The notes beneath the pieces are model-generated. The model saw only the letters and a program-made list of their open reading frames with translations. It had not been told where the DNA came from and did not search any database. A DNA stretch of 64,000 nt. Source: Marsupella aquatica (lineage: Eukaryota > Plantae > Marchantiophyta). Positions 3,209-57,368 of the stretch are shown here, piece by piece. How positions within the stretch are numbered: position 1 is the stretch's first letter; each line of letters begins with the position of its first letter. The stretch lies in NCBI GenBank assembly GCA_973895155.1, contig OZ316894.1, positions 11,944,828-12,008,827 of the forward strand. Reading direction: 5' to 3'. The translations under genes were made by a program, and so were the position numbers.

Positions 3209-5057
3209 TGAAAGAGCCGTCAGCTTCGGACTAGACAGCAATGCGGAAACATGAGAGAGACTCACTCAATCAGACGCTACACCGACAAGACACCCCGAGT
3301 GAAGAACCTCCTGAAGGCTCCATACTCGCTCCATAGCAAATGAGAGTACATGTGAAGAATGAGGGAGAGAGTGCTCTCCCTCCAGCCTATACCCCCCAAG
3401 GGGGCCAAGATGAGTGGGTCTAAACTAAGCGGATCTTATCCTAATGTAATCTAGGGTTAAAACTAACCCTAGTAAGGCCAAGCTAACTATGTCGGGAACT
3501 AGAGTCAATTCCTAACAATCTCCACCTTGACTCAAGTTCACACAATGAGTCAGGTGATATACAATATGTAACTAAGTAACATATTTACATAGTCACCGGT
3601 TTGGCCCTAACATTAATAATATCCACACAGTGACTAAAGCTACTGGTAGGTAAAACTTTGGTAAGCATGTCTGCCGCATTCTCCTCTGAAGCCACCTTCT
3701 CCAGAAACATCTGCTGTGTCTCAATCACCTCACGGATGAAGTGATAACGAATATCAATGTGCTTTGTCCTGGCATGGAACACAGGGTTCTTAGCCAGATG
3801 CAAAGCACTTTGACTGTCGCACAGCAGCACCGGTCTTTCAGGTGAAAGACCCAGATCACTCACCAATCTCCTTAGCCAGATCAGCTCCTTGGTTGCCTCA
3901 CATGCAGCCATGTACTTAGCCTCAATAGTAGACAACGCAACACAAGATTGAGTTGCCGACTTCCAGCTGATACAACCTCCACCCAGCATAAACACATAGC
4001 CTGTAGTAGACTTCCTGTTATCCAAGTTACTAGCATAATCTGAATCTACAAAACCTTCCAACTCTAATGTAGAGTCTGCTTTACCGTCAAATAAGATCCC
4101 ACAATCTAAGGTACCTTTCAGATACCGCAAAACCCACTTCACTGCTTCCCAGTGAAGCTTACCAAGATTTGCCATAAATCTGCTTAAAATGCTAACAGCG
4201 TGAGCAATGTCAGGTCTAGTGCATGTCATTGCATACATCAAACTACCCACAACACTATCATAGGGAACATGTTTCATCGCCAGTCTATCACTCTTACTAG
4301 AAGGGCAATCATCCTTTGAGAGTTTAAAGTGGGAGGCCAATGGAGTACCAACTGGTTTTGCATTCTCCATTCCATACTTGGCAAGTACCTTCTCCAAATA
4401 CTGCCTCTGAGAGAACCATAATTGCCTTTGCTCCCTGTCACGATGAATCTCCATCCCTAGTATCTCCTTGGCCTGACCCAAGTCCTTCATTGAAAACTCC
4501 TTACTCAACATTGCTTTCAGATGGGCAACATCAGACTTATTCTCAGCCAGGATCAGCATGTCATCCACGTACAATGCCAGCACAATGTAACCAAAGTGTG
4601 AGTAATTCTCCACCTCCTTCATATAAATACAACAATCATGTTCACTTCGTGTGAACCCCTGAGATAACATGAAGGAATCAAAATGCTTATTCCACTGTCT
4701 GAGACTCTACTTCAATCCGTATAACGAGCGCAAGAGCTTACACACCAAGTGTCTGGTCTTCTCAACACTCAAGAGCTCCGGACTAGACAGCAATGCGAAA
4801 ACATGAGAGAGACTCACTCAATCAGACGTTACACCGACAAGACACCCCGAGTGGAGAAACTCCTGAAGGCTTCATAGCAAATGAGAGTACATGTGAAGAA
4901 TGAGGGAGAGAGTGCTCTCCCTCCAGCCTATACCCCCCAAGGGGGCCAAGATGAGTGGGCCTAAACTAAGCGGATCTTATCCTAATGTAATCTAGGGTTA
5001 AAACTAACCCTGTAAGGCCAAGCTAACTATGTCGGGAACTAGAGTCAATTCCTAACA
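3209..5057 (-). mobile_element. Internally deleted Ty1/Copia element with both LTRs
   Basis: TSD CGATG at 3204-3208 and 5058-5062. 3' LTR 3209-3517, PPT AGGTGGAGAT at 3518-3527, truncated 5' LTR ~4775-5057. Confidence 0.9.
3585..4760 (-). pseudogene. Copia RT (C-terminal part) and RNase H
   Basis: LYVDDML, MKDLG, TRPDIA, RKSTTGY, CDSQSA, HARTKHIDIRYHFIRE and ADMLTK motifs in ORF 3585-4670. SLYGLK*S lies just upstream. Confidence 0.95.
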
Positions 5058-9165: not shown

Positions 9166-11076
9166 CTATTGCTCCTCCTCCTCCTCCTCAGGGTCCTCCT
9201 CTTCCCCCTGGTCATCAACGTGTGCTGATGACACACGACTACCACCACTACCACGGTGGGAAGAACCTACCTCACGACTACTCCCCCCCCGAGCACCACT
9301 AGTACCAGGAGTAGCCCCCTCATCATCATCACTACTGCTCACATCAGCACCCGACCCCTCAGACTCATCCGAATCCTGCATCCATTACATATCATTAGTT
9401 TCCGCAAGACATAAAGGGTCACTCACAATGTTCGCATGCTAATCATATGGTTCACACTTAGACACTTACAGTAGCCAACTCGGCATCTACCATCGCAAAG
9501 AGGTACTTTTGTCCATGCTCTATCGCCACCTCAATATGCTTTTTTGATATCTTTCTTTTGTACCTCCGATACTGCCATGCATAAAACCAATTAAAATTGG
9601 TTAAATTTGCCCTTAAGCATACCCTATAGCCACAAGTGATGCCTAAATCCTCAACTACTAAACACGACCCCAAAAAAATTTAAAATTCAAATTTGCGAAC
9701 CTATAAGCATGGCAACTTGCGAACCACATTTTTTGCGAAGGCGTTGCGATGGAGTTTGCGATGCGCATTTGTTCGCAAAGGCATCAGAAAATTGAAATGG
9801 AAAAAGTCCATGATAGAATTTGCGAGGGGTTTGCGAACAAATGCGCATCGCAACACCTTCGCAAACTGTGTTCCCGAGAGTTTTTAAAAATTTGCCAAAA
9901 ATTCTAAGTGTCAGAGTTTCCCTAAACTAGTAACCAAGCAAGCATGCACAATAGCAAGAACATTCGGGGATGTCATTCACTTGCATTGCACAACTCTGAA
10001 AGGAATAGAGAGGTTAGGGAGGAGCAAGAGGCACTCACAAAGTGTGACTTGAGGCCGGGGAGCCCGCCTTGACCCAACTTGTGGACTGGATTGGGGGTGG
10101 ATTTCACTCGTTTGGCTGCATCTGTGAAACGCTTGGGTGGCTTTCCCTCCTGGTCGGCCACCTTCTGCATCTCAGCTACCTTTTGCTCAACTGGCTTCAG
10201 GTCGTGGTCAGGGGGGAGCTTCCCGGCCTCCTTTGCTTTCAAGGCTCGATCTAGATTGCCCTTCCACTCTTCCAACTCGTGAGCTGCCTTAATTTGCACC
10301 TCAATCTTGTAAAACGAATTCCAGATGTCCTCGGTGAAGTGGAGGGGTCTGCACAAGTTCCTGTATGATCTCAAGTCTTTCAGGTGGGCTCTAATCTTCA
10401 TCCTGTCATGGTATCGCATTTGAGACATAGAATTTGAAATCTTATCTGCCAACCATTGCTCATCTATGTCAGGCCAATTGCAAAATGCATCCTTGATTTG
10501 GTTGATGACCCTCTTTCGCTCTGCCTTCTCAATCTTCCCCCACTGCATGCCTCGTGAGAAATTGCTTGTGATAATCTGCTTGATTGTGCTCTTAGCCCTT
10601 GCATACGCTAGCTCAGTTGGAGTCCCACTCGTCTCCAAGGCAATGAATGGAAGTTTTTTTCTTGCTTCCTCTTTCTGACGTTGCTCCTCCCTCTGTTTTC
10701 GAATTGAATCTCTCTCCTCTCTTCTCTTCTGCTTCTCTAGGGGTTGAGGAGAGGCAACTCCCGACTTAGTTCTTTCCTCTCTCTTCCTTTTTTTCTCTCT
10801 AGCCTTCTCTTCAGCTGTGGCCCTCTCCTCCCCCTCTCTAGTAGCTTGTCCTGCTACAATCCCAGTTTGCAAAACCTGTCCAAGAATCGCACTCAAAGAG
10901 GCAAGCCCTGCTGGAGAATTGAGATTCACTTCTCCCAATTGTGCAGCACTGAGATGTTGGGCCACTAAGTCTGCCCAGGCATTCTTCTCTTTCTCTGGAT
11001 TTCCCCCATTGCCACTACCACTACCACTACCACTACCACTACCACCTTGCCCTCCACTCCCCTCACCGGTAGCCAT
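9166..11076 (-). CDS. CACTA second ORF (TnpA-like accessory protein), probably three exons
   Basis: 367-aa open ORF with a GTGAGT donor near 10038. Putative downstream exons at ~9470-9571 (YRRYKRKISKK...) and ~9166-9375 (acidic/Gly-rich) are flanked by AG/GT. Confidence 0.55.
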
Positions 11077-11232
11077 AGCTCCCCTCTCTCACAGTCTCCC
11101 TCGTACTGTCACGCGCACCCCGGCCCTTCTCGTCTTGCTCAAAAACTGAAATGAGCCTGAATGCGAGCTCCCGCCGATGTTTACGCCATTCAAAAATGAA
11201 GAACTTTTGATTGTGGAGTTCAAGGGCAGTTC

Positions 11233-11655
11233 ATGCAAGATTCACAAAGTAGTCGTCATGACACTAATGTGATCAGAGATGTGGTGCCTCACTATGGGAA
11301 GATTGAGGAGATCTTGATCATATCCTATGATGCCGATTCCAAATTTGAAGAGTATGTCTTCAAGTGTAAGTGGTTCAAAATTCACCTGGTTGGTGATAAT
11401 CGCACGGTACTTCTTGATGAGTGTGAGTTTACTCGGCTGAAGACATCAGCAACTAGCTTTCAACCATCTCATTGGCAAACATCTGAACCATTTACATTCC
11501 CAAGTCACCTTGAGCAGTGTTTCTATATTCCGTACCCACCAGACCCAGAGTGGTCAGTTGTTATACCGTATGTGCCACGGTCCCATTCCATTATCTCGGA
11601 AAAACCTGACGTTATTATTGTGTCAAATGGAGGAGAGGATGAGGACCAGGTTTGA
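11233..11655 (+). pseudogene. CACTA transposase C-terminal DUF4216-like fragment
   Basis: YGKIEEIL...FKCKWF...EPFTFPSHLEQCFY..P...WSVV pattern typical of the TnpD C-terminus. The rest of the transposase is absent. Confidence 0.8.
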
Positions 11656-13253
11656 TGCACTAGTAGTAAAACTTGTTGTGGGCCCAAAATTTGACCCTAA
11701 ACTAACTATCGTGGTTTTATTTATATTAACATATTAATTTTCTTTTTTTGTTTTACAAACACTTAATTGGACTTTGAAATTTCATCTCATTGTTATATAT
11801 GCAACCCTAGCCGTTTCCAAAGCTATCCTCATGCATGCCACCTTTTTGAAAACCCTAGCTGTAACCTAAACACATGCATTCTCCATCTTGTAAAGAAACT
11901 CTCTCAAACATTTCCATTCTACAAACTTTTCAAACAACTCTCTTTGCAAAACATTTTCAAGCTTGTCAAGAAGCAACTTCTAAACACTTTGTGAATAACA
12001 CACCATCGGTAATTGTGATGCCAATGGGTTCTCAACTTTGCGAATCAATTGGCTTCGGTAACTTGCGACTATTTATACTTCACAATATTGTGCGAAGCTA
12101 ATAGGTTCACAAGATATATTTTAGAACCTTATTATCGCTAAATTATGAAACAAAAGAGATCCAAATGCAGTCGCGATGGTCGCGGATCCACAAATACTTT
12201 GCGAGACGAATAGTATTTGAAAGAGTTGCGAATTCAATCCGGTCTCAAACAAATTGCGATGTATTTAGCTTCGCAACACTATGTTGCAAACCTTTGAGCA
12301 TGGTTTATTGTGATGCGTGTTTGATCACAAAATATCTGAAGTCGATGACATCGCAAGACCATCCCGGCGTAAAAAAAAAGCTTCACAAAAGGGGCCAATA
12401 TGTAGTAGTGTCTTGTGGACATTCTCCCCCATGTGATGCATGGTTAACTTGGCCACGGCGACGGTGGCCACGGGCAGCCGGCTCCTTCCTCTTCCTACCC
12501 CAAGAATTGTCCCCGGGGTGACTCATAGAGGGGGACATCTCCCCGTCTTCCCTATCTGGTAGGGGTAGTGCAACTACTGTCAGAACTGGTGTTTGGGGCC
12601 GCAACGATCACCGTGTGGTCCATCAAGGCCGCCTCTTGGGTCCGGGCTTGCTGAGGTGGTGGTGTTGTCCCGATGCAATAAGTACCCGATGGGTTGCGGT
12701 TGAGGGGAGGGGCCTCATCCTCCGAGCTGAGATTGACCGCATTTACCATAGACCATACCCGAACAGGCGGTATGACTGGTGGTGGAGATTGGCTTGAGTG
12801 AGGCCGAGGCGGTGTTTGGTTATTCCCGGGCTGGATGGATGCCATAGTAGTCAAGGCGGAACCGTACACTTGGGTTGTAGTATGTCCTGACTGGGCGAGT
12901 GCTTGGGCTTTGGCGAAGATCTCGTTAAAGTGGTGTTGTTGTAGGTCGATGGTCCCCAAAATCTGAAAGACCTCATAGGGGAGGTAGAGGATGGCTTCCC
13001 CAAAGCCAAGGTACTTATCTCCGTCAAAGAAGAGCTCGGATATTTTCTTGTCCTTGCAGTACTTGCTCTCAAAGGCGAGCCCCAAATCACAGATCCAATG
13101 GGAATGGCCTAGCAGACGGACTTGTCGTTCAAAATGCTTCTCAATGGCATACCTCCGTGGATTGATATCTGCAAGCAAAGCCGCAAGATGGCTTCCTATT
13201 GTAAGGAATCAATACCAAAACTAGAGGGCTGAGCTTGACAGGATAGGGCCAGA

Positions 13254-13800
13254 CCTCACCTGATAAAAAATTAGTTCTCCATAAGTGTGGACAATGTACA
13301 CAAGAACGCACACATGCAACATCCAATAATACAGCAGGTCTAATCCAAGACCTTACCTAATGAACATTGACAACAATCTGCTGATGATGATCACCCAAGA
13401 GTGGCACATTCTCCAAAATGTAGGCTGGAGACTGTGTCTGATGCAACTGAAGATAACGCAACACCCGTAACATCTCCCAAAATAATGCAAACCGTGGATC
13501 ATGAAGTCCATGTCCAACTCCAGCTCTAGATTGGCCCTGACATGGCCAACCAGCAATCACCAAATCAATGGGGCCAACACAACCCAAATAATTTGCCCCC
13601 AACAATGAAATATCAATAGGCAATGCATGCTGATAGCCACAAATGGCATCCACTGGTAACAATTGTGGATAACAATCCACCAACAATGCGACATGACGCA
13701 ATTTGTCTCCACATACAAGTAATGACACACTAAAATTCCTACCTTAAGGACAACAGCCAATCCAGTCTAATCCCACCAAATAAATCCAACAAACAAATAC
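13254..13800 (-). pseudogene. DNMT3-like C5 cytosine methyltransferase domain in the retroelement polyprotein (frameshifted, truncated after motif VIII)
   Basis: Motif I LLDLFGGI (~13769-13795), motif IV DLVIAGWPCQG (~13534-13566), motif VI YILENV (~13405-13422), motif VIII-like LLDVA.V.S.VH.P.LW.TN (~13270-13330). Confidence 0.85.
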
Positions 13801-14199
13801 CCTCCAATGGATACTGCCATTCAATGGGAGTGGTATCCAATGGTGAAAGCATCATCGGCCCACCTGCAAAAGATTGCTCTGCTCCTAGATGTGGTGTAAA
13901 AGCATGACGCCATGCATCATGTACCAATTGTGCTCTTGACCGTGGCAAGGATTGGCTAGTGCCCCACACTAGTGGCACAACACTACTAACAGGTAACCCA
14001 CTCATGACCTCTTCCTCATGTGACTCCTCTATTGCTGAACCATCTGTTGCATGTGTGTTACCCTCAATCAAATCATCAGGATCAACGATCATAGCATTGA
14101 ATGCTGCCAAAGACAATGGTGACATAGGTTTAGGGCCTCTCATAGGTCTACTAAATCGCACTGGCAATCTGCTCAATCTAGCATCTCCTGATTGCCAAT

Positions 14200-14530
14200 A
14201 AGGTTGGTATGAAATAGATTCATCCCAAAAATCAAGAATGAATCCCATAGGGTAAAGCATTGTACATCCCACCAACACATCATACGACTTTGCCTTAGTC
14301 AAAATAGCTTGCGCCTGTATGGGAGAGCTATCCTTTGCATGACGCACGTAAATCTGCAAGTTAAGTGGTCGTCTTGTGATGTGCTATGTGTGTGTAGGTC
14401 CCCCCAATGAAGTCTGAATAGGAAAGGGACACTCCTCTAGATCATCTAGATGCAATCCCAATCCTTGTACCGCAGACTTACCCAACATCAAGGGCTAGAC
14501 ACCAGTATCCAATAACACCCTCTCTGGCTA
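14200..14530 (-). pseudogene. Retropepsin-type aspartic protease
   Basis: RVLLDTGV*PLMLG ... IQTSLGG ... YDVLVG in a single frame with TAG stops, continuing in frame to MTase motif I. Confidence 0.8.
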
Positions 14531-15787
14531 GTATATTGCTCTAGTAGACCCAACTAATCGAAAGATATCGCTCTGATTATCCAATGACACAATGCTAGGT
14601 TTAAACCTAGTCCTCTCAAATGCAGGGTGTGCTAACAAGTCCATCAACTTTGTCACTGCTGCATGCCATGTCTCACTAGTAGCAGTAGGTGGTGTCAACT
14701 TTGCTGCTCTAGAATTGCGTGTTGCCTCTGCATGAGAAACCAAAACTGGAGTATCCTTGCATAATGTGGTTGCCAATCTGAACGTACACATAAGCTGGAC
14801 CAACTCCCAATGTCAGCATATTTGTCGCTAAAAATAATGGGGTGCGCACTACGGTAGTAGCCGCCCCAGCAAGGTACCTGTCATCCTTGTTGTAACATCA
14901 TGTGATTCTGCCAACTTGCCCACACTAGGGTTTGTCCAAATTGGGTTCATAGAGGCAGTCAGAAATATCTCTAACATTGTAAAAGACTGAGAAAGCTTTG
15001 TCTGACGACGTGCATCTCGCCTCTATGGATCTAGCTCCTCGAGGCTCAAGAGCTTTGGCTGCTCCACATGTCAAAGCTGCTGATGCATCAATGTGTGCAA
15101 TGCCACACATGAATCCCATGGTGGCAAGGTCTTCATTAGCCCCATAAGATGTGGAAGCTCCATAGGATGTAGAAGCCCCATCACCAGAAGCAAGTATCAC
15201 CTGAGAACTAGACATGATAGCTAGTTTTTGCTCTAACTGAGGCGGAACTGAGGCGGAACTTGGACCAGGAAATAGGAGACCTAATCGATCACAACTTTGG
15301 CGATTAGGATCTTCAATCAGGAATTTCTAGTGCAACGGGATCGGGGGAGCAAGGGGATTCTTCTGATAGCATCGAAAGATGGATTGAGCAAGGCTAGCAG
15401 GAGCGGAAAACCGGATGAAACTGGCCAAGGGACAACTCAGCGTGTCCAATCGACAGAACTGTAGGGCAAGTGGCTTTTTCCTGAGCGATTGTTGGTACTC
15501 GAGAACGCTACAGAGAGTGGAGATCACATTATACCCGTAAGCTAACTTAAGCTTTGGATTGCAAGTGACGTCGAAGGAGTGGCCTGTGGCCTCGTCGGGA
15601 AGAGACAACGCTTAGCGTGCAGCTGAATTTTACTATCGTGGTGAGAAGCTGCAACAGGAGCACCATCGAATCGATACCGGGCACACTGAATCCAAAACAG
15701 GTAAGACGACTAGTTGCAAGGTGTCAATCCAATTAAGAGATCTGCTAAGTGCATAAGGACATTCTATAATACTAGGGTCTTTTTGGG

Positions 15788-17926
15788 ATGGAACACGCCC
15801 GGGATCCTCGGTCCCTCTTTCCCGATGGGGTTTCTGGTGGCCGTGCTCTGGCGGGAAGAAGTGGTGGTAGATCGCTTGGTGGGCGTACTGGTGGAAGCCA
15901 AGGGACATTACCTGATCGCTATAATAGGAACCCTCAGAATTTCCTGATGAATCAACAATACTCAGCTCAGGATGCGCGCACCGGCGGGGTGTCACTGCAA
16001 CGGCCCTTTGATTTGGCATACAACGAGATGGGAGCTCGGTCGTCTGCGCAGGTGAGGAAGGAATCCACTACTTTCCTATCAGCACAGGCAGAATGGGAGA
16101 AACAGAGAACAGCGGAAGATGGTGGGCACGAAGAGAATGAATTCAACTATGGAACTCAAGTGGGGCCAGCACAAATTGAGCATCGAAGGGAAAACATGTA
16201 TAGGGGTCACATGAGCTCCTTCAGCGGCAGGCACTATGGAAACAATCGACCTCAAGATGCAACTATGATGGACCAACGGGAGACTGAAGAAGTTACAGAA
16301 GAATGTGTTAGAATTCTAAAAGGGATCGCAGAGAACTCAAAAGAGAAGTGGGAAGACAGCCTCTATACTACTATGGAATGGAGCCTAGAGGAAGCGGCAG
16401 TTAACATCCATCAACTGTACAACTGTGGAGCTTTGTTTTACTTCACCGAAAGGACACCGCTGCTGCAGGTTTTCAGAGAATGGATTGAAGAGACAATGGT
16501 TAAGGAGATGAGGTGGCCGGTGGTCCAGGTTAAGTTTGTAGGCAGGAACTTCTACCTGGTGGTCTTTGAGCAGCCCGACCACAGAGATGAAGCACTTGCA
16601 TCGGCCCCTTGGTTCATGGAGAGGAGATTTGTATATGCATTTGCATGGGAACCAGCGTTTGATGTTAAGAATGAGAGCTTCACCAAGCTCCCGGTTTGGA
16701 TTGAAATTCCGTTTAGAGCTTTGATTTTGGAAGGATGCCGCCGGAGGATTGCTAAATCTTTTGGACCACTCTTATACTACATACAAGGAGAGGAATACAG
16801 CTCTTACCCGCATGATAGAGCTTGTATCTTATGGGATACCGAAAGAGAAATACCGGCTAGCGTTCGGATTCAACTGAGAGAAGACATTGTGATATGGCAA
16901 CCAGTCATTTTCAGGAACATTCCCTTCCATTGCTACAAATGCAACGTCAAGGGACACCTTGCACGAGACTGCACTACGGAATTGCAAGAGAATGACAAAG
17001 CTGGGAAGGGGCAAGGTGGGACTTCGGGCCCGGAGAAGAAGGAAACAGGACAAGATTTCAATAACACGACCACAGATTTCAATAACACGATCACAGAGAT
17101 CCACGGACCTGAAGAGATGGGCCCTCCCTCGGCTGTTTGTGCAAACGCCACCTTACGCCATGAAGGAGATGCTTTTGAAGGAGAGGAAATGAACCAAAAT
17201 GCAGAAATTGAGCAAGATATAGAATCTCAGGTTGCACGATCTAACTTGCTTGTTGCTCATAGTGGTGGGGTTATCAATTTGAGCCTGCAGGGCCGTGTGA
17301 GGGAGCCCTCGTTCCCTCGCGAGGGAACAGACTACAGGTCCATTGCACCTCTACAAGTCTCAGGGAATGCCTCGAAGGAAAGCAACACTGTAAGTCGTCC
17401 CATGGGAAGACTTGACCTGGGAGCGTCGAGCTTTGAACCTGTGCCCTTAGGACGAACTGTAAAGCCGTCTGGACAAATCCCTGCTACTCCTAACTCAAGC
17501 GTTGGAGGAGAGGAAGCGTTCTCCTATCATGGGGACTCAGATATTGAGATGTCTGAATATGACGAATACATCCTCCGGAGCCAGGCTAAGGCGCGCGCAC
17601 GAAAGCAGGAAATGAGGACACCCCAGAGAGAAAAGATTAATAAAGAGAAATTAGAAGGGAAAAAGCAACGTTCTCTCCTGTTCTCACACGATAATCTGAT
17701 GGATGCAGGTTCTGAGGAGCAATTGGAAGGGATCGATCGGGAGCAAGGACGCTGGGACAAGGAGAGACTTAGATCTGCGGATGGTAGATCGGAAGGGAGG
17801 ACCTCGCCTCTGAAGAACCTGGCTATTCGACCCACTGATAAGAATGGCTATACTGTGTCCTCACGGCCTTCAACGCCCATGAGTGGTGGGGGGGGTGCTT
17901 CTCCTGGAGGGCGCCCCCGTATCTAA
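15788..17926 (+). CDS. LINE ORF1 (DUF4283-like domain plus CCHC zinc knuckle)
   Basis: 712-aa open ORF with APWFM...WEPAF...LPVWIEIP and CYKCNVKGHLARDC. Confidence 0.85.
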   Translation: MEHARDPRSLFPDGVSGGRALAGRSGGRSLGGRTGGSQGTLPDRYNRNPQNFLMNQQYSAQDARTGGVSLQRPFDLAYNEMGARSSAQVRKESTTFLSAQAEWEKQRTAEDGGHEENEFNYGTQVGPAQIEHRRENMYRGHMSSFSGRHYGNNRPQDATMMDQRETEEVTEECVRILKGIAENSKEKWEDSLYTTMEWSLEEAAVNIHQLYNCGALFYFTERTPLLQVFREWIEETMVKEMRWPVVQVKFVGRNFYLVVFEQPDHRDEALASAPWFMERRFVYAFAWEPAFDVKNESFTKLPVWIEIPFRALILEGCRRRIAKSFGPLLYYIQGEEYSSYPHDRACILWDTEREIPASVRIQLREDIVIWQPVIFRNIPFHCYKCNVKGHLARDCTTELQENDKAGKGQGGTSGPEKKETGQDFNNTTTDFNNTITEIHGPEEMGPPSAVCANATLRHEGDAFEGEEMNQNAEIEQDIESQVARSNLLVAHSGGVINLSLQGRVREPSFPREGTDYRSIAPLQVSGNASKESNTVSRPMGRLDLGASSFEPVPLGRTVKPSGQIPATPNSSVGGEEAFSYHGDSDIEMSEYDEYILRSQAKARARKQEMRTPQREKINKEKLEGKKQRSLLFSHDNLMDAGSEEQLEGIDREQGRWDKERLRSADGRSEGRTSPLKNLAIRPTDKNGYTVSSRPSTPMSGGGGASPGGRPRI

Positions 17927-17969
17927 TCGCTAACTTTGAATTCTGGGAGCCTCCTTGCGCTCTAAGAAG

Positions 17970-20900
17970 ATGGAGGACCGGCTGAGAATGGCTTCATGGA
18001 ATGTATGTGGGTTAGGTGAACCAAATAGGAAACAACTAGTCAAACAGTGGATAAAAGGATTAACTGCTCCACTTGGAGCGCTGGCTCTTCAAGAAGTCAA
18101 GACAGATAGCTTTAGATTAGATATAGCACTTCGAGCAATTCTACCTGATTACCACCACTTTATGTCTGAACCAGAGGAGGGCAGAGGGGGATCAACGCTA
18201 TCTATTCACCCAAAGTGGAAGGTGCTTAATCAGGGAATCTTAGATTTAGGAAGAGTTGTATGGGTAATTCTAGAACATAAGAAAGGGCCGATTGGAATTG
18301 CCAACATTTATGCACCAAACTCAGCCAGATCTCGAGCGGTTGTATGGCATGAACTCAAATTGGCTCTACCTCAGGCGTATTGGATTATATGCGGGGATTT
18401 CAACATGACGGAAGATCGTGCGGACTCAACGGGAGGATCTTCGCTTATTAGGGGGCTGGAATCAGAATTTTGGCGCTTCCTGACAACCAGGTTTGATCTG
18501 GTGGATGCAATGAAGATCGGAGGGCTAAAGTTTGGTTCTCTATTCACATGGAGGAGGTGGAGAGGAGAGGAGCTGATGCAATCAAGGTTGGATCGCTTCT
18601 ACGTTAGCGATGGAGGCTGGTGGGTCTGTGGTCCGGTCTGCCTCATGCACGATGGTGGGTCCACGCTTTCTGATCATGACCCTATCCTATTGGAACTTCG
18701 ACTCCAGGAGGCTGGGGAGTGCGAAGGGTTGGACCGGGTTCACCTCTTTAAGGCTGACCCCACTGTACTGAGAAAAGAGGAAAACAGGGAGAAGCTCGAA
18801 GCTGCCTGGAGGAGCGGAAAGGACAATGCTAGGGATCCACACGCGAGATTTGCCATAGCTTGCAGCGCACTACGGAAGGCTTACAAGGAAATACAGGCGC
18901 TACCAAAGAAGAAGGAAGAAGAAATGAACTTCTTAAGAGCCCAACTACGGAATCTAAAGGAGACGTTAGAAGAATTCAACTCTGAGGAAACAGTGACGGA
19001 GTATGTCCTGGCGGAAGATCAGCTTCACCTGGCTGAAATGGAGGAAGCGATGCTAGGCAGAAGATTGGCACGAATTAAATGGCTTGGAGAAGGGGAAGAA
19101 AGCACTAAATTCTATTTCGCTACGATTAAAGCCAAACGAGACCGAGAGAAGATGTCCTTCCTGCAAAGGGAGGATGACTTGACCATAGTGGACCCAGCGC
19201 TGATAATGAGAGAAGTGGAAAAGCACTGCAACAATCTATACTCCCCTGAGTCACTTTCTTACTCGGAACACCAGGATTATTTGGTTGCTCGGAAGCGGCT
19301 GCTGGAGAAAACAAGACACTCTCTTACTGCAGCTGAGATTCGCATGATGGAAGGAATCCCATCGGTAAAAGAGGTTAAAGATGGACTTTGGTCTCTCCCA
19401 CTTGATAAGACTCCAGGACCAGACGGACTAACGGCAGAGGTCTTCAGGGCAGGCTGGGATTATATTCACACGGATTTGCTGGAGATGATACAAGACTACT
19501 GGTTAACAGGCAAGCTAGCGGCAAGCATCAAGCTGGGCATTATCAAGCTGATACCCAAGAAAGAGGACAAAAGATTCTTGAAAGATTGGAGACCACTGAC
19601 CATGCTAAATACGATTTATAAATTGATTGCTAAGCTTTTGGCTGCCCGGATGCAACTGGTCATCCCTAAGTTGATTAACAAGCAACAAACTGGGTTCATC
19701 CCTGGCCGTCACATCTTAGAGAATATATCGGTAGCATGGCTCACTGGCGAATGGGCTCGGAAGACAAGACGTCCGACACTCTTTCTGAAGCTAAACTTCG
19801 AAAAAGCTTTTGACAGGGTAAATCACGATTACTTGTGGGAAACAATGCTTCTCCTGGGGTTCAGTAGTTGGACCATTCAGCTAGTTCAAGTTTTGCTCTC
19901 TTCGCTGCTTCTTCACGGGTGGCTGTGAATGGGCTTATCTCAGAGGCAATTGTGTTGCGTAGGGGGGCGAGGCAGGGCTGCCCCCTCTCTCCCTTACTCT
20001 TTGTGCTGTCCACCCAACCGCTGATGACGTTCTTAGATTCAGAGATCAAAGAAGGAAGAGTGCAGGGAGTCAAGATCAGCGAACAATGTACTATCTGCTT
20101 CAGACTCTTTGCAGACGATGTTGGAATGTTTATCCCTGCATGTGAGACTGCATTCTCTGAGGCTAGAGCAGCGCTGGCCTGCTATGAGTGCGCGTCTGGT
20201 GCTAGACTGAATCTCCAAAAATCGATTATCATACCATTTGCGCTTGAGCACATTCCAGAATGGCTAAGCAAAACTGAATGCAGGATCAGCAAAGCAGGAG
20301 AGCTGCAGATCTATCTTGGGGCGCCATTCGGACTAGAGCTTGGGGCGGATCAAATTCACAAATTCTGTTTAGACAAGATCGCTAAGAGATTGGCTTCCTG
20401 GGCTAACAAACTGATCTCATTCACTGGAAGGACTCTATTGATTAAACAGGTTTTGTTGGCTATCCCTATCTACCATGTAATGCACTTGCGATCATCTGCT
20501 GGGCTGGCAAAGAAATTGGTGGCGCTTTGCAGGGACTTTCTGTGGGGCTATAATCATGAGGGGAACAAGAAAACTCCTCTGGTGGCCTGGACGAAGATGG
20601 CAAGGCCTAAAACAGAGGGCGGACTTGGTTTCAAAGACTTCCGCACTCACTCTGAGGCTCTACTTACCCAATGGTTCATGAAGGCTCTGGATTGCCCCAC
20701 TGCTGAATGGTCGCTATTGCTGCAGGCTAACCTTGATCTCATGGGCTGGAGGCTTTACAAGGTGATACGTCGGAACAATTACACTTTCCAGGATAAGCTA
20801 CTGATGTGTTCGCCACGGGCTAGCGGAGGAATGCCTTACACATGGGGCCTGTGGATGGCTTGGGAGGCCTTAAGGCGTGGCCTCTCTTTTGTGCCCGGTG

Positions 20901-21847
20901 TGGACGGTATACCTGGCAGATGGAGCATTCAGGACTCTATTCGATGTCTCGTCGGGCCCCACTCCTGGCCAGTCACTGATTTGGAGGAGGTCACAAAGAC
21001 CTTAGGGAGACTAGGAATCAGGAAAATAGCTGACTGCTGGTCTGGGGGCTCAGGGGTATGGATCGACCTTTCTTGTCGCTGGCATTATCTTAGAGGTGTC
21101 TCTGAAGAATGTAAGTCACAGTGTGCACTCATACTGGATGTCATCCTTCGTGGCCACTCCTGCTGGCTGGACCTGGAACCGCGTGCTAGGCAGTGGCGCT
21201 GGGCTGACACTCGGGATTTCTCAAAGTCCTTTCGAATTAACAACCAGCGAGCTTACGAACTCTTGAGGGACAAAAGCACTGACTTTGAGAGATGGAATCG
21301 AATTTGGGGATGCAGGCAATCGGAAACAGAATGGAATTCTGTCTGGACTCGAATTTGGACTTCTGATTTGTCTTCCAGGGCAAAAACATTCATTTGGCGC
21401 TTGATAGTTGGTGGTCTCTTCACGGGATCTTGGGCTGCTAAGATTGGTGCAGGCTCAGGTATATGCCATGTTTGCCCTGGGAGAATTGAAAGCATCCCCC
21501 ACCTTTTCTTTGGCTGTGCTCACGCCATGCTCTGTTGGGGAATCGGAGAGTCCAGCTCCTTGAGACAACTGTTTGGCAAGGGTTGGGGTAGCCTGGAACT
21601 CCTTGTTGCTACTGATTCCAAAACACACACCCAATCTGCCTGCCTTTTCCTGCATTATCAAATGCTGTGGGCTCTTTGGATGGGACGAAATGAGCAGATT
21701 TTTGAGAAAAAGGTGATCCGAGTATTTGACTTTGGGCTGGTCCTATCGGAAACCGAGACTCACTTGCGGGCTGCGGGCTGGTGCCTCCCCATTGGTGGGC
21801 GGCGCATCAGACTGGCTAAGGCTAGGGATCTCATAGCTTTAGAATGA
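17970..21847 (+). pseudogene. LINE ORF2 (APE endonuclease, RT, zf-RVT), frameshifted near 19890
   Basis: SWNVCG, LQE, GDFN, SRLDRFY, SDHDP; PGPDG, WRPLT, RQGCPLSP, FADD; C..C....ESIPHLFFGC. Split over ORFs 17955-19928 and 19868-21847. Confidence 0.95.
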
Positions 21848-22162
21848 CGACAATGGTTTGCTAGGAGTACTGGCAGAGTCACCTCTGTGGCTGCGTTGCT
21901 GGTCTAGGAGTGATAGCTATTGGAAGAGGTTGAATGGGATACCTCGCTTTACCGGCTCTAGGGCTCTTGAAGTTGACATGATGTATGGGTCACTCACATT
22001 TTGGGCCACTAGGTTTAGTCCCCCCTTTTTTCTTTTTTTATTGTGATTCTGGCCTTTGCTTTTGCCGCTGGCCTCCCTGAGGGAGTTGTTCTGATGTATC
22101 TATGGGGCTGTTTGCTTCCCCCCGACCGTGGGGTTTTCGCGGTCTCACCTTTTATTATAAAA

Positions 22163-25100
22163 AATATTTTCCCAGGAATATTAGCATCCTTAGGTTATGT
22201 AGTTACAATAGGAGCAACATCACCTCCCTGCCTTCCTACATGTGGCATACCTCAGCCATGACCACACCCTCTACCTGGCCTCCTCTTCCTTGATCATGTG
22301 TGTGTTGTCCTTCTCTTCGTAACTTAGGATGTAGTGAGAAAAAACTATCCTTGGTGTGTCCAGGAGCTCCACAATGATCACATTGCCGCTGATCAAGTGC
22401 TAAGGCCCCTCTTGACCCTCTATCATCAAGGCAATGCCGTTGCGCATGATCCCCACCATAGGTCTAACATCCTGACTATTGTCCAGGATAGGAAGGCACA
22501 GGTCTCTGACTGGTAGATTTTTGTGCAGTGGGCTTCTTTCTTTGGCTCTTACGTGTAGTAGGCTGTGATGTGGGTGTGAATGCAGCCTTTGGTGCTTCCT
22601 TGGGAAATCCGAAAGTCACTACTTTCTCATTCACCATATTGAGCTCAATGTGCTTGGTCAGTAAAAAAATAACTAGCAATGTGAGATTTGCATTCCTATA
22701 TACACTAGTAGAAACCGGGGGGTATTTAGACCCCATTAAACGACTATTCAGTACCGTACATAGGACTTGGAAACAACTGGGAAGGACTCCAGTCCTTTAT
22801 AGGATTGTGAGTCATATGTTTTGTTACTATAATCAACTGAGTCCTTTATAGAACTAGTTCATAAGTCGTTTAATAGATTAGATTTTCAGTCTATTGTAGT
22901 CTTTGTTTGGGTAGCTTTGGTGAGTCATTTTCAGTCTTTTAAGGGGTGCGATGGTGAGTCGTTAGGAAGGACTAAAATAGTTATGGAGGGTAGTCTTTAA
23001 GTATACTTTGTGGGTTTATAAAATGACTAAAGGATCGGAGACACTTCATGGGGTATGTATAAGTCTTTCATGTCAACTCGAAATGAGTGATGAAGACCCC
23101 ACTATACTCTTTGGAATGAACTCACTCTTGTGCACAAATAACACATTCCATTCATGTTTTTTAGTGTACTTGGTATAGTAAAAGTGGTAGTACTTCTAGT
23201 AGCGCAACCAACTTGCTATGAGGATGTCCGGAAAAGCACAAAGGCTGAAAGGTGATAGATTCCATGCTCAATGTGACAGGTTTTTTCAGCTGATCAAGCC
23301 AAGGTGCAGAGGAAAACTGATTGAAGGTGACATGGGAAAGTTTTTGGTTCAAGTGCAAAAGAAACTCTTGCCTTACAGTGCTTGACGCTCCTTCAGCTGG
23401 ATAGGGGCAACTCCAGCTACACGGTTTGGTGCAATCACCGTCTGCTCTGTTAAAAAAGTATGGCTAAAAGTGGAAGGCCAATGTTGCACTTGTGAACTTG
23501 CTCCCGCGTCCAGCCCTCAGTCCCCACTTTGTGGTAGCAGCAAGCTTACCTCTGAGAAGAAAGCCATAGCAAAGGGTTTAGCAGAAATCCCCGAGAAAAT
23601 CCCCACTCTGAAATCCATTGCTCGTGGTCACAAATGATGGCAGCAGAGCATTCGAGCACCAACAGCTGAACTGACCTCAATCACACTTGCCTGGGGCAAC
23701 AAAACAATGTTCTGATTGCCCTTTCAGCTCAATGATCCCCCTTGCACAACTACTGGGTTAGATTTCCCACCACAAATGCAATGAAGTCTATGCCCAACAC
23801 ACTCCAACGGTACATGAGAGCAAGATTGGGAGCTATATATACTTTGTATGCAAAGAAAGATTCTACCAATGCAGCACAATGACACAGAAGACAGAAATCA
23901 AATTGAATGGGTCATAGTAAAGTTGCCCACCGTTCAATAGGGGGCCACCAGCATCACAAATCCTCACATTCCTCCCACGTAGACTCTTGCATAGACTGTC
24001 CAGGCCTCCGTTGGTGGATGGAGCAATGCAACACCAAATACCAAGCTCCAAGGCAGCTCCAAGGTTGAATGTCGCGATGCACAACTCCGTGGTCCTTGGT
24101 TGCAACTAGGAGAAGCACTGAATGCAAGTTGATGCTCTTCTCTACTGTTCAAGCACCCGACTCGTAGATCCACAGACACTGATCGTAGCTCCAGCTAAAG
24201 ACATCGTTTGAACAATAGCTGCAACACACTAAGGAGCTCCCACAACCTCCCTCTTCAAAGCTCAGTTGACCTGCACCTTACCACCTTCGACGTAGGGCTC
24301 CCAATCCATGAACCAACAAAACAGAATGGCACCAGGAACATAAGGGCGCCAAATAGGTTGTCTCACCTCACCCTTCGAGAGCCGATCATCGCAGCATCCC
24401 TAAACTCCCAATCCCTCTTCTCGGATTCCAAAAAGCTCACGCACATTCCAAGACTATAAAAAATGGCCATTTCACGTTGTTATCGATTGTCGCTCCCCAC
24501 AAAGTCCACAATCCATAAAACACCCATAGCGCGGCTGTAGAACAGATGCAACCCGCATGCAGCTTCACCAGCTCAACGGCAACTTGACAACTTAAGGGTG
24601 CAGCTAAAGGGTCTAGACCACAACTGTGACCAAGATTGTCACCCAGAACCTTGAAGAAACCCCAACCTCCGACTCCTCAAACTCCGACAAGCGCCTTGCA
24701 AAGGTTGCAGCAGCCACAACCTTCTTTGCCCTACCAGCCAAAACCTAAATGTCCCTAAAGGAGATCGAGCAGGAATGCATCTCTACTAGTAGACTGCAAG
24801 CGCAAGGTTAGATCACCGCAACTGCCTAAATACTGCTCCTCAAGAGCAAAAACAAGCACATTACGCGCGGGAAGTTTAGTCCGCAATGGTTGCAAAGTGG
24901 GCAACACTGAAAGGAAAACCCTACATAAAACCCGAACACTCCACCCCTCATGTTCTAAGTTCAATGACAATGGCAAACACTCCAAAGAGACTCCCAAAGT
25001 GAAGTTTAGTGCCTGAAACCAAATTAGGGAAAGCCACTCAGCCTTACCGTTTGAGTGAGCCGTTGAGTGTCACCCAAAGTGGGACAAAGCTACAAAGTGT

Positions 25101-26480
25101 TACTGCATGGCCAACTTACTTAGGTATATTACACATTTTTCTTGGCTTGGAAAACTTCAATAAAGCCAGATGTTGGATGAAGTAGAGCCGACTGTGAACT
25201 GAAAATCATGCCAGCCCATAATCTTGGCTATGCGTGCACATAATTCTTGGCTTGGCAAACTTGAATAGAACGGGATGTTGGTGAAGCCGAGCACCCTAAA
25301 TAGAAATTGTATGTTGCCCACGCATAGCAAGGTTGATGAATGAATTGAGCATAATAGGACTTACTATTTGGCAATCTGACCCATGCCCTTTTAGGGTGTC
25401 GGACAACTACGTCTCCATTGAGTCAAATCACTATGAACACAATGAAGAGGTGTGTTAATCCGGTGCGCAAGTTAACCCCATGACCATTATCAGTAGTCAA
25501 CAATTCAACCATTGACATCCTAGAGTGTTCATCCTTCACAAAGTAGCAAAGTTACCTAACATAGTCTTTTCATAAACCATTAAACACTGACAGTCTATCC
25601 TAGTAGTTGTGTGAACCGGTGCAATGCTTCCCAGTCAAGTCTGTCAAAAGGACTTAGTAGGCTTAGTCCTAAAAGGTTCAGTCTAAACTGGCCCGGTTTC
25701 TACTAGTGATAGAGTGACATGTCTCACTCTGCGTCGCAATTCTCTGTCAAGGATTGTATACCAAAACTGGACTGCTTGGGCCTCCGTCACTCTCTTGGTG
25801 ACAATGATCAATTTTTGCATATGGGTGTATGCCTTACGTAGACTCTCTCCAATCTTGCGTTGAAACTCCTTGAGACCCTTCAACTTATCGGGCCTCACAC
25901 CCTAATAGTTTTGCTTCAATACTTCAAAGAACTCCACCATAGGGTTAAATGTTGGCGCAACTCCAATCCCTGCCACAATTGCACCGGTAGGAATAGCGGG
26001 GGATGCTACTAGAATGCTACTAGTGGATGGTGTGCCACTCTGGCTAGTGCTGCTAGAAGAAGAAATAGTTGTGGTAATGGATTGGGCAACTGCACTTGTG
26101 CCATATGTGATGGACACATAATAAGGTGACCAATGTTGTCTCCATGCCTCAATCTCAATCAATGAGTCTTCCAAAACTCATGGTAGTCATCCATGGGTGG
26201 CCCCTCCACATACTAAAATAATCTTTTTCATGCCATGAAAGGTGTGAACAACGTGACGTTATGCAATGTCTGTATATCGCACCATGTATCAAACTCCTAG
26301 ATGAAATCATCCAAATCAATCATGCCAATTGCACGAGAGTATCTCCTTGGGCTTTTCGTAGCCCCATATATCTCTTTTATGTCCCACAACAAAGGTGCAA
26401 TCACCCAATGACAAGGAGAACTGGTCATAGAGTCCTCGTCAGAATCACTATCTGAAGTTGCGCTGCTGACTGCTACCAAT
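22163..26480 (-). pseudogene. Gag with two degenerate CCHC zinc knuckles (interrupted by CACTA 22703-25708)
   Basis: LDDFI*EFDTWCD, EFQRKIGESLRKAY..M, FWYTILDRELRRRVR. Knuckles C*TYGGDHAQRHC and CDHCGAPGHTKD lie at ~22350-22470. Confidence 0.7.
22703..25708. mobile_element. Non-autonomous CACTA element (3006 bp)
   Basis: Perfect 17-bp TIR CACTAGTAGAAACCGGG and 3-bp TSD ATA at 22700-22702 and 25709-25711. No transposase ORF is seen. Confidence 0.92.
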
Positions 26481-29019
26481 ATTGTTGGTCAAAACTGCAC
26501 CTCACTCTGAGTAAAACCGGTCTGTTGTCCATTGGGTAGCTCCGCAATACTAGAAGAATCTATGATGACCAATCACTCAAACTGTAGTTATCAATTTAAT
26601 TTATGTGCTAACCCTAACGGGGCAATCTGTCCCTGCCAGCACCACAAGCACTCACCATGGTGTGTTGGGCATCACTTCAACATCACCATGAAAAACATAT
26701 ACAACATAACTAGAGTGTTTAGTTACAAACCTGAATCACTCCTATGGAATCAAGCGCCCACACAACACTAATATGGCGCATAGGCAGGTAGCGTGTGCGA
26801 AGAGGGTCCAACAACAAAAGTGGTTAAACAACAACTCTCCACACCAAGAATGATCATAAATTGATCAAACAATGTTCATAACGTTCAATGTAGGGCCTTC
26901 ATACTAGGCCTCAAGGATCCAATGTCAATTGTCCAAGAATCCACCGCAAATGAGTTCAAACTAAGTATTTAGATGGATTCAAAAGTACATAAAAGCCTTA
27001 GGGATTCATTCCTTGGAGTCCACCAAATATGGAAGGAAGCATGTACAATGCACCACACAAGAACTAGCTAGTTAAGTGCATGAGGGAAGGAATAGCTTTG
27101 GGATGGTGACCTCTCACTTGTCATTATGCACCAAATCTGGCACTCAAAATTGCAACACTTGCAATTTCTCCTCACGTCCTAAGTGACCACAAGTTGCCTC
27201 AAAGCCTCAAAATGCCAAGATGAGCCAAAGAGTGAGCCCTTCATGCCTGCTATGTTGGGACTCAATTCAGATTTGGCAACATCCGCACTCTATTTCTTCG
27301 TAGAAAATGCAGTCAAAACAACAATGTCAAAACCTGTTGATCACTCTCGACCTCCACAAAACTGTTGCGCACGGTATTGGGACATTCACGAGCGTACTGT
27401 CACAATAAAAATGCAATTGCATGCGAGCACTCAAATTGATGTTGTTGTGAACTCAACAACATTCTGATAGATCTATCCACAAAACAACAGCACAATAGAA
27501 ACGACATGCTCTCCCCATCAAAATAGCAAGCTTTGGCCGCCACTTTCCTTCACAAAAAGCATTAGCTATTCCCACTCCAACTCAATCAACAACCTCTGAA
27601 CTATCAGACTGTCAATCGACCAGATCCAACAACATTCAAGCTCGGCCAGAACCAGATCAAATAGCAATGGTCTACTGAATCAATAGAACCAATGATTCGA
27701 GATACCATGAATCCACGTCAAACACAAATCCAATTGATTCAAGCAACACGAACCGTCAACAGCAAAATCAAAATCGAATTGAGCTTTTGTCCGCACAATA
27801 GAGTACAAAGCTCCTCACTTCTTTGATGTAATCTCAATCCAAACAAACCACGATTGACGCCAATCAAACATCCAATCCTGTCCAAAATGATCACATACAG
27901 ATATCGAGCTAAACGCACCTCACGCTTTGAGGAATCCACGTTACGTATACACGAAACCGGCCAGCCACACCATAGCCACCAAAGCTCATGCTCAAAGGCT
28001 CAACATCAAAGAAGTGAGGCCTTTGAGACACAACAAAGGGATAACTATCCCTCACAAATGTGAACTGAACCCTATCAGCTCATATAGCACACATGCTAAA
28101 ATATATAAACCTAGACAACATGATATACTCTAATGCTAAGAATGGTGTGACAGAGAATTTCTCCCACTAATTTCTTGTGCACTAAATAGTTGTCTCCAAC
28201 AATTGATCCTCGGGTCATTGAATAATTTCATTGCATGGTTGTAGTCATGTAAGTAGTCATTGTGAAAGCTTACTAGTGTTCTAGTTAAGAAAGTGTTGTC
28301 AGAGTGTAGTGGGGCATGGAAGCCCAAAATGGGTAGGGAGAGTCAGGGCGTCGTGGGGGCTGGGCAGACAAACCTCCATTGACTCCCTTGACTCTGACCT
28401 TTTTTCCCTTTTTCCCAATTTTTCCCTATCTTTTTTCCCTTTTCCCTTCCTTTTCCCTTGCTGTTTTCTCCTTTTCCCTGACCTGCCCTTCTCCTGTCTC
28501 CGCCCTCCTCTCCTGCAGGTTCATCATCGTGTATATCCTTCCCCTTTGTCGCAACTATTTTCCTCCCTCAACCTGAGATGCGTTCATGGCAGACTATTTT
28601 GTGAGCGATTCTGTGAGGTAGAGGAGGCAAGGAGAGGTAAGGACTAGAAGTGGGGTGGGGAATGTAGAATGTGAGTCACATTCAAAGACTCCCTCGATAC
28701 TCCCCCGATGTTTCCCAAAGGGAATGACCGGGAATGCCTAACCTCGCGGATCCGCCATTCCCCTAACTATACGTCCTTCCTCTTATCTCCTTTCCCTTGC
28801 AGTCCTGGACGAGAAGAAAAGAATCTTGAAAAGAATATTGATTCCTCTCTCACCTGATGTGCCGGCCCCCCATGTGGCTTGCTCAATAACCCGCCTAGTC
28901 ACCACACACAACTGCCTAGATATACCTCCTTTTGAAAAATCAATCAGGAATATTGATCAAATAAATCAGACAACCAAAAACTGATCGCACCTGTTTTGAC
29001 TTTGTAGCCGAACCTCTTG

Positions 29020-48829: not shown

Positions 48830-49260
48830 ACCTTCTCCTTCACGCAATAAGACATTGGCCCCTAGAACATTAAAAATGACCCTAAAATATACATGTAAGA
48901 AAGACTCCTAGCCCTTCTCCTTCTCACAAGGTGACATTGGACTGTACAACATTAAAAATGACCCTTTACCCCCTTCTCCTTCACACAAGGTGACGTTGGC
49001 CTGTAGTACATCAAATATGACCCTCGATCCTCTTCTCCTTCACAGAAGGTGACATTGACCTCCAGAACATTAAAAATTGGCCCTCTACCCCCTTCTCGTT
49101 CACAGAAGGTGACATTGACCTCCTCTATTAAAAATTGACCCTCTACCTCCTTCTCCTTCACACAAGGCGACATTGCCTTCACAACATTAAAAATGACCCT
49201 CGGCCCCTTCTCCTTCACACAAGGTGACATTGACCTCCATAGCATTAAATAAAAATTGAC
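48830..49260. repeat. ~60-bp tandem repeat, about 7 copies
   Basis: Unit CCTTCTCCTTCACACAAGGTGACATTGACCTCCAGAACATTAAAAATGACCCT, with related units at 48110-48205. Confidence 0.85.
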
Positions 49261-56624: not shown

Positions 56625-57368
56625 CTAATTCCGGTGCCTGTCTCGCCTTCTGAGCTTCCTCTGCTTGTGCTTGTTCATTTTCTTCTTCCGCTTTCGCTTT
56701 ACACTGCTGGCCTCTAAAGGAGTGATCTCACTAGTTTCCTCGAGAAAATCTAATGACGAGGAAGATAATAGTAGAGGAGGGGAACTACTTCTGCAATTCT
56801 GTCTAGTCACCGATAGGAGTCCCTCCATGTCTACAGCAGTCCCGGCAGCTGCTTCTGGAGTACTCTGAGACTCCATTAAACTCACTGATCTGTCGTAGCT
56901 TCTCCACTGCAGATACCTTGAAACGAAATCCTGATCCCTATAAATTAAGGCTTCATCTCCATATTTTGTGGCGGTCGCCCCGCCGTTCCAAAGCTGGTTC
57001 CCCTGCGAAAACCTGCAGCCATGTATTACGCCAATGCTCCAGTCGTCTGTCGACCTATCCTGCGAATTCTGCAAGTGCCAGCTGCGAATGCCTAAGGAGT
57101 CTTTCACCGAACACTTCTGCGCACTTTCAACACTCGACGCCGCCAGATCCAGCAGCTTTCTGTTGACATACCACAGCTCTAGTTGCCCTTCATCGATTCG
57201 CCCTTCCACAGAGGGACAGGAAGAGGAAGGGGAAGTCGCAGAGGAGGAAAACACAGCCAAGTTTTCAGAACAGCCGAGCGGCAGCTGCCTTCCATGATCG
57301 CAATGAAGCTGCCGACGAAGACAGCGAAGTCCAAGGGACGCAAGGGAGCGCCCTACCCGAGTGCCCAT
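56625..57368 (-). CDS. Mitochondrial mS38/COX24-like (DUF1713) protein, single coding exon
   Basis: N-terminus is Arg/Ser/Leu-rich and presequence-like. C-terminus SSVKRKRKKKMNKHKQRKLRRRDR is the family hallmark. First ATG is at 57368. Confidence 0.85.
   Translation of the reverse strand: MGTRVGRSLASLGLRCLRRQLHCDHGRQLPLGCSENLAVFSSSATSPSSSCPSVEGRIDEGQLELWYVNRKLLDLAASSVESAQKCSVKDSLGIRSWHLQNSQDRSTDDWSIGVIHGCRFSQGNQLWNGGATATKYGDEALIYRDQDFVSRYLQWRSYDRSVSLMESQSTPEAAAGTAVDMEGLLSVTRQNCRSSSPPLLLSSSSLDFLEETSEITPLEASSVKRKRKKKMNKHKQRKLRRRDRHRN

Follow-up and report, generated by a model that had tools for sequence, protein, structure and literature searches.

We consider it fairly probable that bryophytes and streptophyte algae carry a lineage of Ty3/Gypsy-type retrotransposons in which the Gag-protease (PR) ORF ends in a DNMT3-type cytosine methyltransferase (DNMT), and that this enzyme probably enters the particle and probably methylates the new cDNA. 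In the bryophyte families, the DNMT ends the Gag-PR ORF and a stop separates it from reverse transcriptase (RT), RNase H (RH), integrase (INT) and a PHD finger; from the sequence around the stop, we infer that these later domains are made by readthrough of the in-frame codon. DNMT3-bearing Gypsy elements are a known kind, from Klebsormidium; the occurrence in land plants and the conserved stop after the DNMT appear to be new. The window, by which we mean the whole 64,000-nucleotide stretch of Marsupella aquatica DNA analysed here, contains a decayed copy.

The copy in the window

The original prediction placed protease, linker and methyltransferase motif I in one minus-strand frame, with two frameshifts ahead of motif IV. 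This was confirmed: LLDTG (14515-14501), YDVLVG, the linker and LLDLFGGI (13792-13769) share a frame on the minus strand, and the frame changes lie near 13767 and near 13701. A PF00145 search, proposed at the time as a check, matched 13252-13698 with E 1.9e-10 and 41 bits (cut-off 22), while the protease piece gave a weak match to Asp_protease_2 (E 0.076). Motifs I-IV-VI-VIII follow one another in unpermuted order, with GWPCQG at 13551-13534, ENV at about 13413 and, beyond another TAG, a decayed motif VIII region at about 13308-13270. The catalytic Cys is intact as predicted, but the enzyme is catalytically incomplete, because both motif VIII arginines (HRxR in relatives) have been lost. Three in-frame TAG stops lie in the protease part, and the flagged stretch (13254..14530) has four in-frame stops and two frameshifts altogether. 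Homology to relatives stops at 13252 by tblastn, ahead of motifs IX-X. The copy is a dead, 3'-truncated element remnant, only a fossil, as had been supposed. At least one public run bears the truncation out: a single contig of run X2 covers 13136-13414, across the truncation point, without any difference. The DNMT piece is 72% identical to its closest homologue, P0001, and 55-66% identical to the majority of the named homologues from bryophytes.

Gag with two zinc knuckles had been placed upstream in the same orientation. It is real and so oriented, but it lies 7 kb off instead of adjacent to the protease, and its knuckles (22469-22431 and 22382-22344) are decayed, with no Pfam match remaining. 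An antisense L1 of 6.9 kb parts the knuckles from the protease, and a CACTA-type element splits gag again (Table 1). The gag N-terminal part aligns to residues 4-221 of Marchantia Mp4g09160 with 47-71% identity (tblastn, E 1e-59). Judged by these alignments, the gag N-terminus, the gag middle and the gag end-PR-DNMT segment are one element in pieces, whose gaps are later insertions. The L1 is near-intact, with ORF1 (15776-17923) encoding DUF4283 and a zinc knuckle, ORF2 (17940-21844, one frame change near 19900) encoding endonuclease-RT-zf, and an 8-bp target duplication. Its ORF1 knuckle at 16931 was considered as the gag of the element and ruled out, as it lies on the other strand. The CACTA-type insertion contains no open frame of 130 aa or more.

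Table 1. The element copy in the window and the insertions that interrupt it
Feature	Position	Strand	Basis
5' terminus (TATCATG at 28125) and 5' untranslated region	26396..28125	-	terminus motif of relatives, contig depth
gag N-terminal part, decayed, one frame change	25686..26395	-	tblastn to Mp4g09160
CACTA-type DNA transposon inside gag	22703..25708	.	17-bp terminal inverted repeats, target duplication ATA
gag middle part, two decayed CCHC knuckles	22260..22702	-	tblastn E 8e-22, alignment to 22706
L1-clade LINE, antisense, inserted in gag	15279..22206	+	ORF1/ORF2, target duplication AATAGGAG
gag C-terminal part and pre-protease region	14516..15239	-	tblastn; frame changes near 15035 and 14785
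Aspartic protease (LLDTG...YDVLVG), in-frame stops inside	14180..14515	-	motif reading, Pfam, tblastn
Protease-DNMT linker, frame shared with protease	13793..14179	-	frame reading, tblastn
DNMT3-type C5 methyltransferase, motifs I-VIII	13252..13792	-	PF00145 E 1.9e-10

At its 5' end, the copy reads TATCATG where relatives begin TGTCATG, and the summed depth of public-run contigs drops at 28120, coinciding with this terminus. Only the 5' terminus of the repeat structure survives; the 3' half of the element was not found in the 64-kb window, which yielded no DNMT C-terminus, integrase match, second A repeat or 3'-end candidate. An RT/connection fragment at 1573-1961 on the plus strand, 59-62% identical to the pol of the DNMT-bearing family, was considered as part of the same copy and set aside, being on the opposite strand; it is likely a remnant of another copy of the family. 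The flagged stretch is multi-copy in the host, because 802-2979 contigs of varied identity per run fall on 12800-15600 in all four public runs. The high summed depth over this interval, which is not a measure of copy number, ends at the L1 border.

Several other features were recorded in the window. Directly past the truncation point is a 218-codon open frame (12555-13208, minus strand) with no Pfam match, inside which 12894-13175 is a separate repeat according to public-run contigs. A DUF4216 fragment (11200-11652, plus strand), a 371-codon frame (9976-11088, minus strand) and, at 11658, the motif CACTAGTAG are probably CACTA transposon remnants, spanning 9976-11666. A Copia-type RT/RNase H frame (RVT_2) occupies 3588-4706 on the minus strand, and a copia gag with a zinc knuckle 63256-63900 on the plus strand. 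The minus strand also carries exons of a protein-kinase gene at about 40500-42000, which we take to resemble the ERK7/MAPK15 group, and a frame ending in a COX24_C domain (56628-57434). Self-comparison revealed degenerate tandem repeat arrays at 57733-58903 and 48912-49271.

The methyltransferase in related elements

Homologues longer than the DNMT piece of the window numbered 41 among 381 candidates, including 15 from Marchantia polymorpha, 4 from Calypogeia fissa and 2 from Sphagnum troendelagicum. The cluster of Mp4g09160 has 18 members, of which at least five among the 15 listed are Gag-PR-DNMT ORFs of 1278-1281 aa with intact motifs; two of the five full-length Marchantia ORFs sit on the V chromosome. 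Of 466 metagenome stretches scanned, 134 were confirmed; the 80 loci kept belong mostly to one subfamily and include some duplicates. On the same strand, these loci match the DNMT C-terminus (75 loci, with motifs IX-X kept, which the truncated window copy lacks), PR (62), RT (56), knuckles (46), gag (44) and RH (41). The domain order is gag-PR-DNMT-RT-RH, after which Pfam identifies an integrase (rve and Integrase_H2C2) and then a PHD finger, followed by the repeats. The main metagenome subfamily groups with a Sphagnum protein (support 100/99); viral contigs gave one weak locus among 13 stretches (42% over 62 aa).

Relatives of the pol part were found in Calypogeia, Marchantia, Riccia sorocarpa, Klebsormidium, Closterium, Tetraselmis and Haematococcus, with three Closterium models carrying the DNMT before RT. 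On a 7,497-bp contig of Klebsormidium nitens, the gene model KFL_013780020 (knuckle-PR-DNMT) is next to KFL_013780010 (RT-RH-INT zinc domain), an arrangement that suggests the domain order of the bryophyte elements. The original prediction of a multi-copy land-plant family with the methyltransferase between PR and RT is supported, with homologues in Marchantia, Calypogeia and Sphagnum. The family is not confined to land plants, the order being found in Klebsormidium and Closterium as well. A DNMT profile search returned 393 clusters at E up to 1e-30, with two Closterium proteins and one Mesostigma protein, the last known as a protein alone, among the matches. Among the 134 top representatives with a near-full DNMT domain, 89 carry retroelement domains; the DNMT follows RT/RNase H or directly precedes integrase in 79 and lies after PR or before RT in 10. 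A large radiation of Gypsy polyproteins (P0066, P0069-P0073 and P0232-P0373) has the DNMT between RNase H and integrase, plus a PHD finger, and is a second placement of the same methyltransferase family, in a sister radiation. Domain order and recurrence together show the DNMT to be a family module of Ty3/Gypsy-type elements in bryophytes and streptophyte algae.

The enzyme class also agrees with expectation, as the unpermuted motif order is that of DNMT3 and not of DRM. A ten-sequence family profile found DNMT3A as its best match among solved structures (E 6e-15), ahead of DRM (1e-7 to 2e-4) and HhaI (1e-4). An AlphaFold model of a related intact DNMT domain had a moderate pLDDT of 65, with a poor target-recognition region, and its top Foldseek matches were all DNMT3 chains, along the domain, at E 1e-14. 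Profile and fold place the element methyltransferase in the DNMT3 clade, with DRM, DNMT1/2 and bacterial methyltransferases more distant. In a DNMT tree of element-borne and other retrieved sequences, which holds 40 hand-chosen rows of 187 and in which the window row fills 46% of columns, the window DNMT falls in a clade with bryophyte elements (100/98); deep nodes, including the relation to the Klebsormidium DNMT, have support of 51/53. The RT relatives, Klebsormidium included, fall together in a broad group whose backbone is weakly supported. That the DNMT was captured once, in ancient times, appears likely. Lack of a PF00145 match, a single-copy methyltransferase, its absence from relatives and grouping with a host DNMT3 had been named as contrary outcomes; the profile matched, the domain is multi-copy and relatives carry it, and the trees were built without host DNMT3.

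Purifying selection on the DNMT was indicated by the proposed comparison among copies, with dN/dS of 0.12-0.19 between families, where dS is near saturation (window against L001, 0.288/1.70). Within subfamilies the ratio is 0.37-0.59, values that include post-insertion decay. The pN of the DNMT (0.23-0.28) is lower than that of PR (0.30-0.37); the linker, with too few alignments, was left out. Motifs IV, VI, VIII and IX were matched in nearly all of 30 hand-picked proteins, and PC, ENV, HRxR and motifs IX-X are retained across families at about 50% identity. The DNMT of the relatives keeps its catalytic residues under purifying selection.

The relatives have the Ty3/Gypsy order gag-PR-RT-RH-INT with an HHCC/DDE integrase, of which the window retains only gag-PR-DNMT. 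DIRS elements integrate via a tyrosine recombinase; the relatives have rve and Integrase_H2C2 in its place. Contrary to the original prediction, they do not form an LTR family in the usual sense: instead of paired LTRs and a tRNA primer-binding site, complete relatives have split direct repeats in the arrangement A1 (about 337 bp)-ORFs-polypurine tract-B1 (about 115 bp)-GC-A2-B2, with the polypurine tract ahead of B1 and TG...CA ends (TGTCATG...CAYGACA). No TGG-type primer-binding site directly follows A1 in the loci examined, and a hairpin after A1 is not significant (z -1.0). Eight loci with both ends displayed five exact 4-bp target duplications, two with one mismatch and one without any. 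Of 15 3' ends with a polypurine tract, five run into A2, nine stop at B1 and one is cut by the contig end. The nine that lack A2-B2 are L013, L021, L031, L033, L034, L040, L041, L048 and L050, and at least two of them have exact target duplications. Recombination between B1 and B2 could produce this short A-ORFs-B form, as could a collapsed assembly or a cut made at the internal junction. In a rearranged copy (L049 12587-13483 / L051 4923-5819), an internal segment is inverted and the end reads A-short spacer-B.

The stop codon between methyltransferase and reverse transcriptase

A codon census found an in-frame stop after the DNMT in 54 of 57 loci. The position ranking second, a decay-prone Gln codon, is a stop in 17 of 52, and the mean over 911 positions is 1.2%. 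The junction stop is TAG in 36 and TAA in 16 of 55 loci, followed by CAACCC in 50 and CAACCA in 2. The evidence covers three DNA subfamilies and protein ends, the junction itself being absent from the window: 26 of the 30 hand-picked proteins end 286-396 aa after PCQ, six Marchantia proteins at exactly 306 and P0001 at 286. The original prediction had envisaged gag-PR-DNMT-RT-RH-INT in one ORF, with the DNMT as a pol module. The conserved stop leaves both points unsupported and assigns the DNMT to the Gag-PR ORF in the bryophyte families; that the window copy is truncated before RT was rightly seen, yet the position of RT in a one-ORF pol is not upheld.

UAG CAR YYA is a tested plant readthrough context (PMC2754532, accessible text). 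The divergent locus L027 has this context exactly (TAG CAA CCA), with no ATG for about 47 codons; another divergent locus, L075, has TAG TAG CCA and an ATG five codons after the stop; the main subfamily, with CAA CCC, departs from the context in base six, and an ATG follows its stop by three codons. In all eight junctions folded, from all three subfamilies, a long stem was predicted that begins some 12-15 nt 3' of the stop, with z of -0.3 to -2.5 (mostly not significant individually) against -0.3 to +1.3 in four control stretches. If the stop is read through, the DNMT would be as abundant as Gag and well above RT and integrase. Such Gag-level expression is not required everywhere, because DNMT and RT share one ORF in some relatives (P0064, P0065, P0242 and the Closterium gene models) and most placements among the top representatives are between RNase H and integrase.

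The same element might instead express pol with no readthrough: ribosomes could reinitiate at the nearby ATG, or pol could come from an internal promoter or a spliced RNA. We hold this possibility to be real though not the likely one. It concerns a different step from the other alternatives and can be combined with them. The early ATGs of the main subfamily and L075 would suit reinitiation, gene models start several pol ORFs at an early Met, and the accessible account of Candida Tca2 shows that it can be undecided how a gag stop is passed. Against this, both ORFs keep strictly to one frame, the preferred stop is TAG, CAA follows it, the 3' stem recurs, and L027 combines the exact context with the lack of an early ATG. 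In retroelements generally, RT must reach the particle, and fusion to Gag brings it there.

Proposed function and relation to known systems

In the model that we favour, leaky readthrough of UAG CAA CC(C/A) would yield RT-RH-INT-PHD, and ribosomes would mostly make Gag-PR-DNMT. Fusion to Gag would bring the DNMT inside the particle at capsid level, where the protease may free it. The DNA met by the DNMT there would be the cDNA, which is likely methylated in the particle. The copy would then integrate pre-methylated, passing as host chromatin, or the methylation would protect the intermediate. Reverse transcription alone cannot define the final ends because the polypurine tract precedes B and not A; the integrase likely cuts the CA/GC/TG B-A junction to make the A...B ends. 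Self-methylation of cDNA is the hypothesis of de Mendoza et al. (PMC5890265, accessible text), to which the stoichiometric argument is added here.

The main target of the DNMT might be host chromatin instead of cDNA, whether around the insertion site or in trans, for example to silence rival elements or the promoter of the element itself. We regard this as unlikely: although Gag-level expression would leave spare enzyme, and the PHD finger of the integrase is a domain of chromatin-reader type, fusion joins the DNMT to Gag-PR instead of to that integrase, and Pfam detects no targeting domain on it. Host DNMT3b of moss methylates CHH and de novo CG (PMC6453930, accessible text), which would also suit action on chromatin. 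A non-catalytic or non-DNA role, such as nucleic-acid binding in the particle or RNA methylation, seems improbable. The inactivity of KnitGypsy-Dnmt3 in yeast and the modest AlphaFold confidence, poor in the target-recognition region, would fit such a role; the retention of PC, ENV, HRxR and motifs IX-X and the match to the DNMT3A fold along the domain speak against it. Capture of a host DNMT3 as a one-off, or chance juxtaposition of fragments, to which the fragmented window copy and trees without host DNMT3 might lend colour, is refuted by the homologue set, the same order in dozens of loci from at least five named genera, the retroelement domains of most nearest full-domain representatives and the multi-copy signal in the host runs.

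A more far-reaching version of the packaging model deserves little credence at present: an ancient streptophyte lineage in which an amber switch loads DNMT3 at capsid stoichiometry, priming does without tRNA, and cDNA methylation steers the cutting of the CA-GC-TG junction by the DDE integrase. The internal junction would have to survive for a copy to be fertile, and nine of the 15 3' ends stop exactly there. If true, young Marchantia copies with intact Gag-PR-DNMT ORFs make it testable.

De Mendoza et al. (2018, PMC5890265, accessible text) reported a retrotransposon-borne Dnmt3 in KnitGypsy-Dnmt3, a Gypsy element of Klebsormidium nitens, and placed its acquisition within that lineage. Like the bryophyte elements, it has an intronless, unpermuted Dnmt3 in a Gypsy polyprotein, a DIRS-like A/B layout and purifying selection (same text). 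In the sole test of a Gypsy-type DNMT, the enzyme was inactive in yeast, an outcome that the authors call inconclusive (PMC5890265). The accessible text puts the DNMT in one ORF with RT and RNase H, whereas the bryophyte families have the stop and would share that ORF structure only through readthrough; 4-bp duplications, the CA-GC-TG junction and the PHD finger are absent from that part of the paper. KnitGypsy-Dnmt3 is known from K. nitens, whereas related elements are found here in land plants and Closterium too. SymbioDIRS-Dnmt3 of Symbiodinium is likewise a retrotransposon-borne Dnmt3 with split direct repeats and methylates CG de novo in yeast (PMC5890265, accessible text); it is of the DIRS type, whereas a DDE integrase and 4-bp target duplications mark the bryophyte elements. 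The fold and motif order are those of host DNMT3 (human DNMT3A/B; Physcomitrium DNMT3b, accessible text of PMC6453930), but the element DNMT is about 21% identical to DNMT3A, intronless and fused to Gag-PR, and has no PWWP/ADD.

Canonical plant Ty3/Gypsy elements resemble the bryophyte elements in PR-RT-RH-INT, TG...CA ends, polypurine tract and 4-bp duplication (PMC6317226, accessible text) and differ in having paired LTRs and a primer-binding site. In the accessible main text of Neumann et al. 2019 (PMC6317226), the words 'methyltransferase', 'PHD' and 'Marchantia' are absent. Readthrough of TMV type similarly uses an in-frame UAG followed by CAA to split an abundant from a rare product (PMC2754532, accessible text). 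The bryophyte stop differs from this type and from that of gammaretroviruses in following PR and DNMT instead of Gag, and its readthrough is a prediction. Gammaretroviruses pass from gag to pol by amber readthrough. The accessible text of PMC12344493 refers to the 2018 work when it names 'streptophytes and dinoflagellates' as having DNMT3 in their retrotransposons, and that of PMC11244446 also mentions the retrotransposon DNMTs of de Mendoza 2018. In the literature covered, mainly open-access text, we found neither a land-plant DNMT-bearing retrotransposon nor a stop after the DNMT; bryophyte copies may already sit in subscription papers, figures, supplements or Repbase-type TE libraries.

The role of retrotransposon-borne DNMTs has been open since 2018, the hosts being intractable algae and the Gypsy-type enzyme silent in yeast. 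The full-length Gag-PR-DNMT ORFs of Marchantia polymorpha, which annotation lists as hypothetical proteins, allow the question to be asked in a transformable plant. Acquisition of the DNMT looks far older and wider than one algal lineage, and counts of 'DNMT genes' and readings of TE methylation in bryophytes may be confounded by element copies. The stop after the DNMT predicts that capsid-level expression is spent on a methylase, which argues for a real function.
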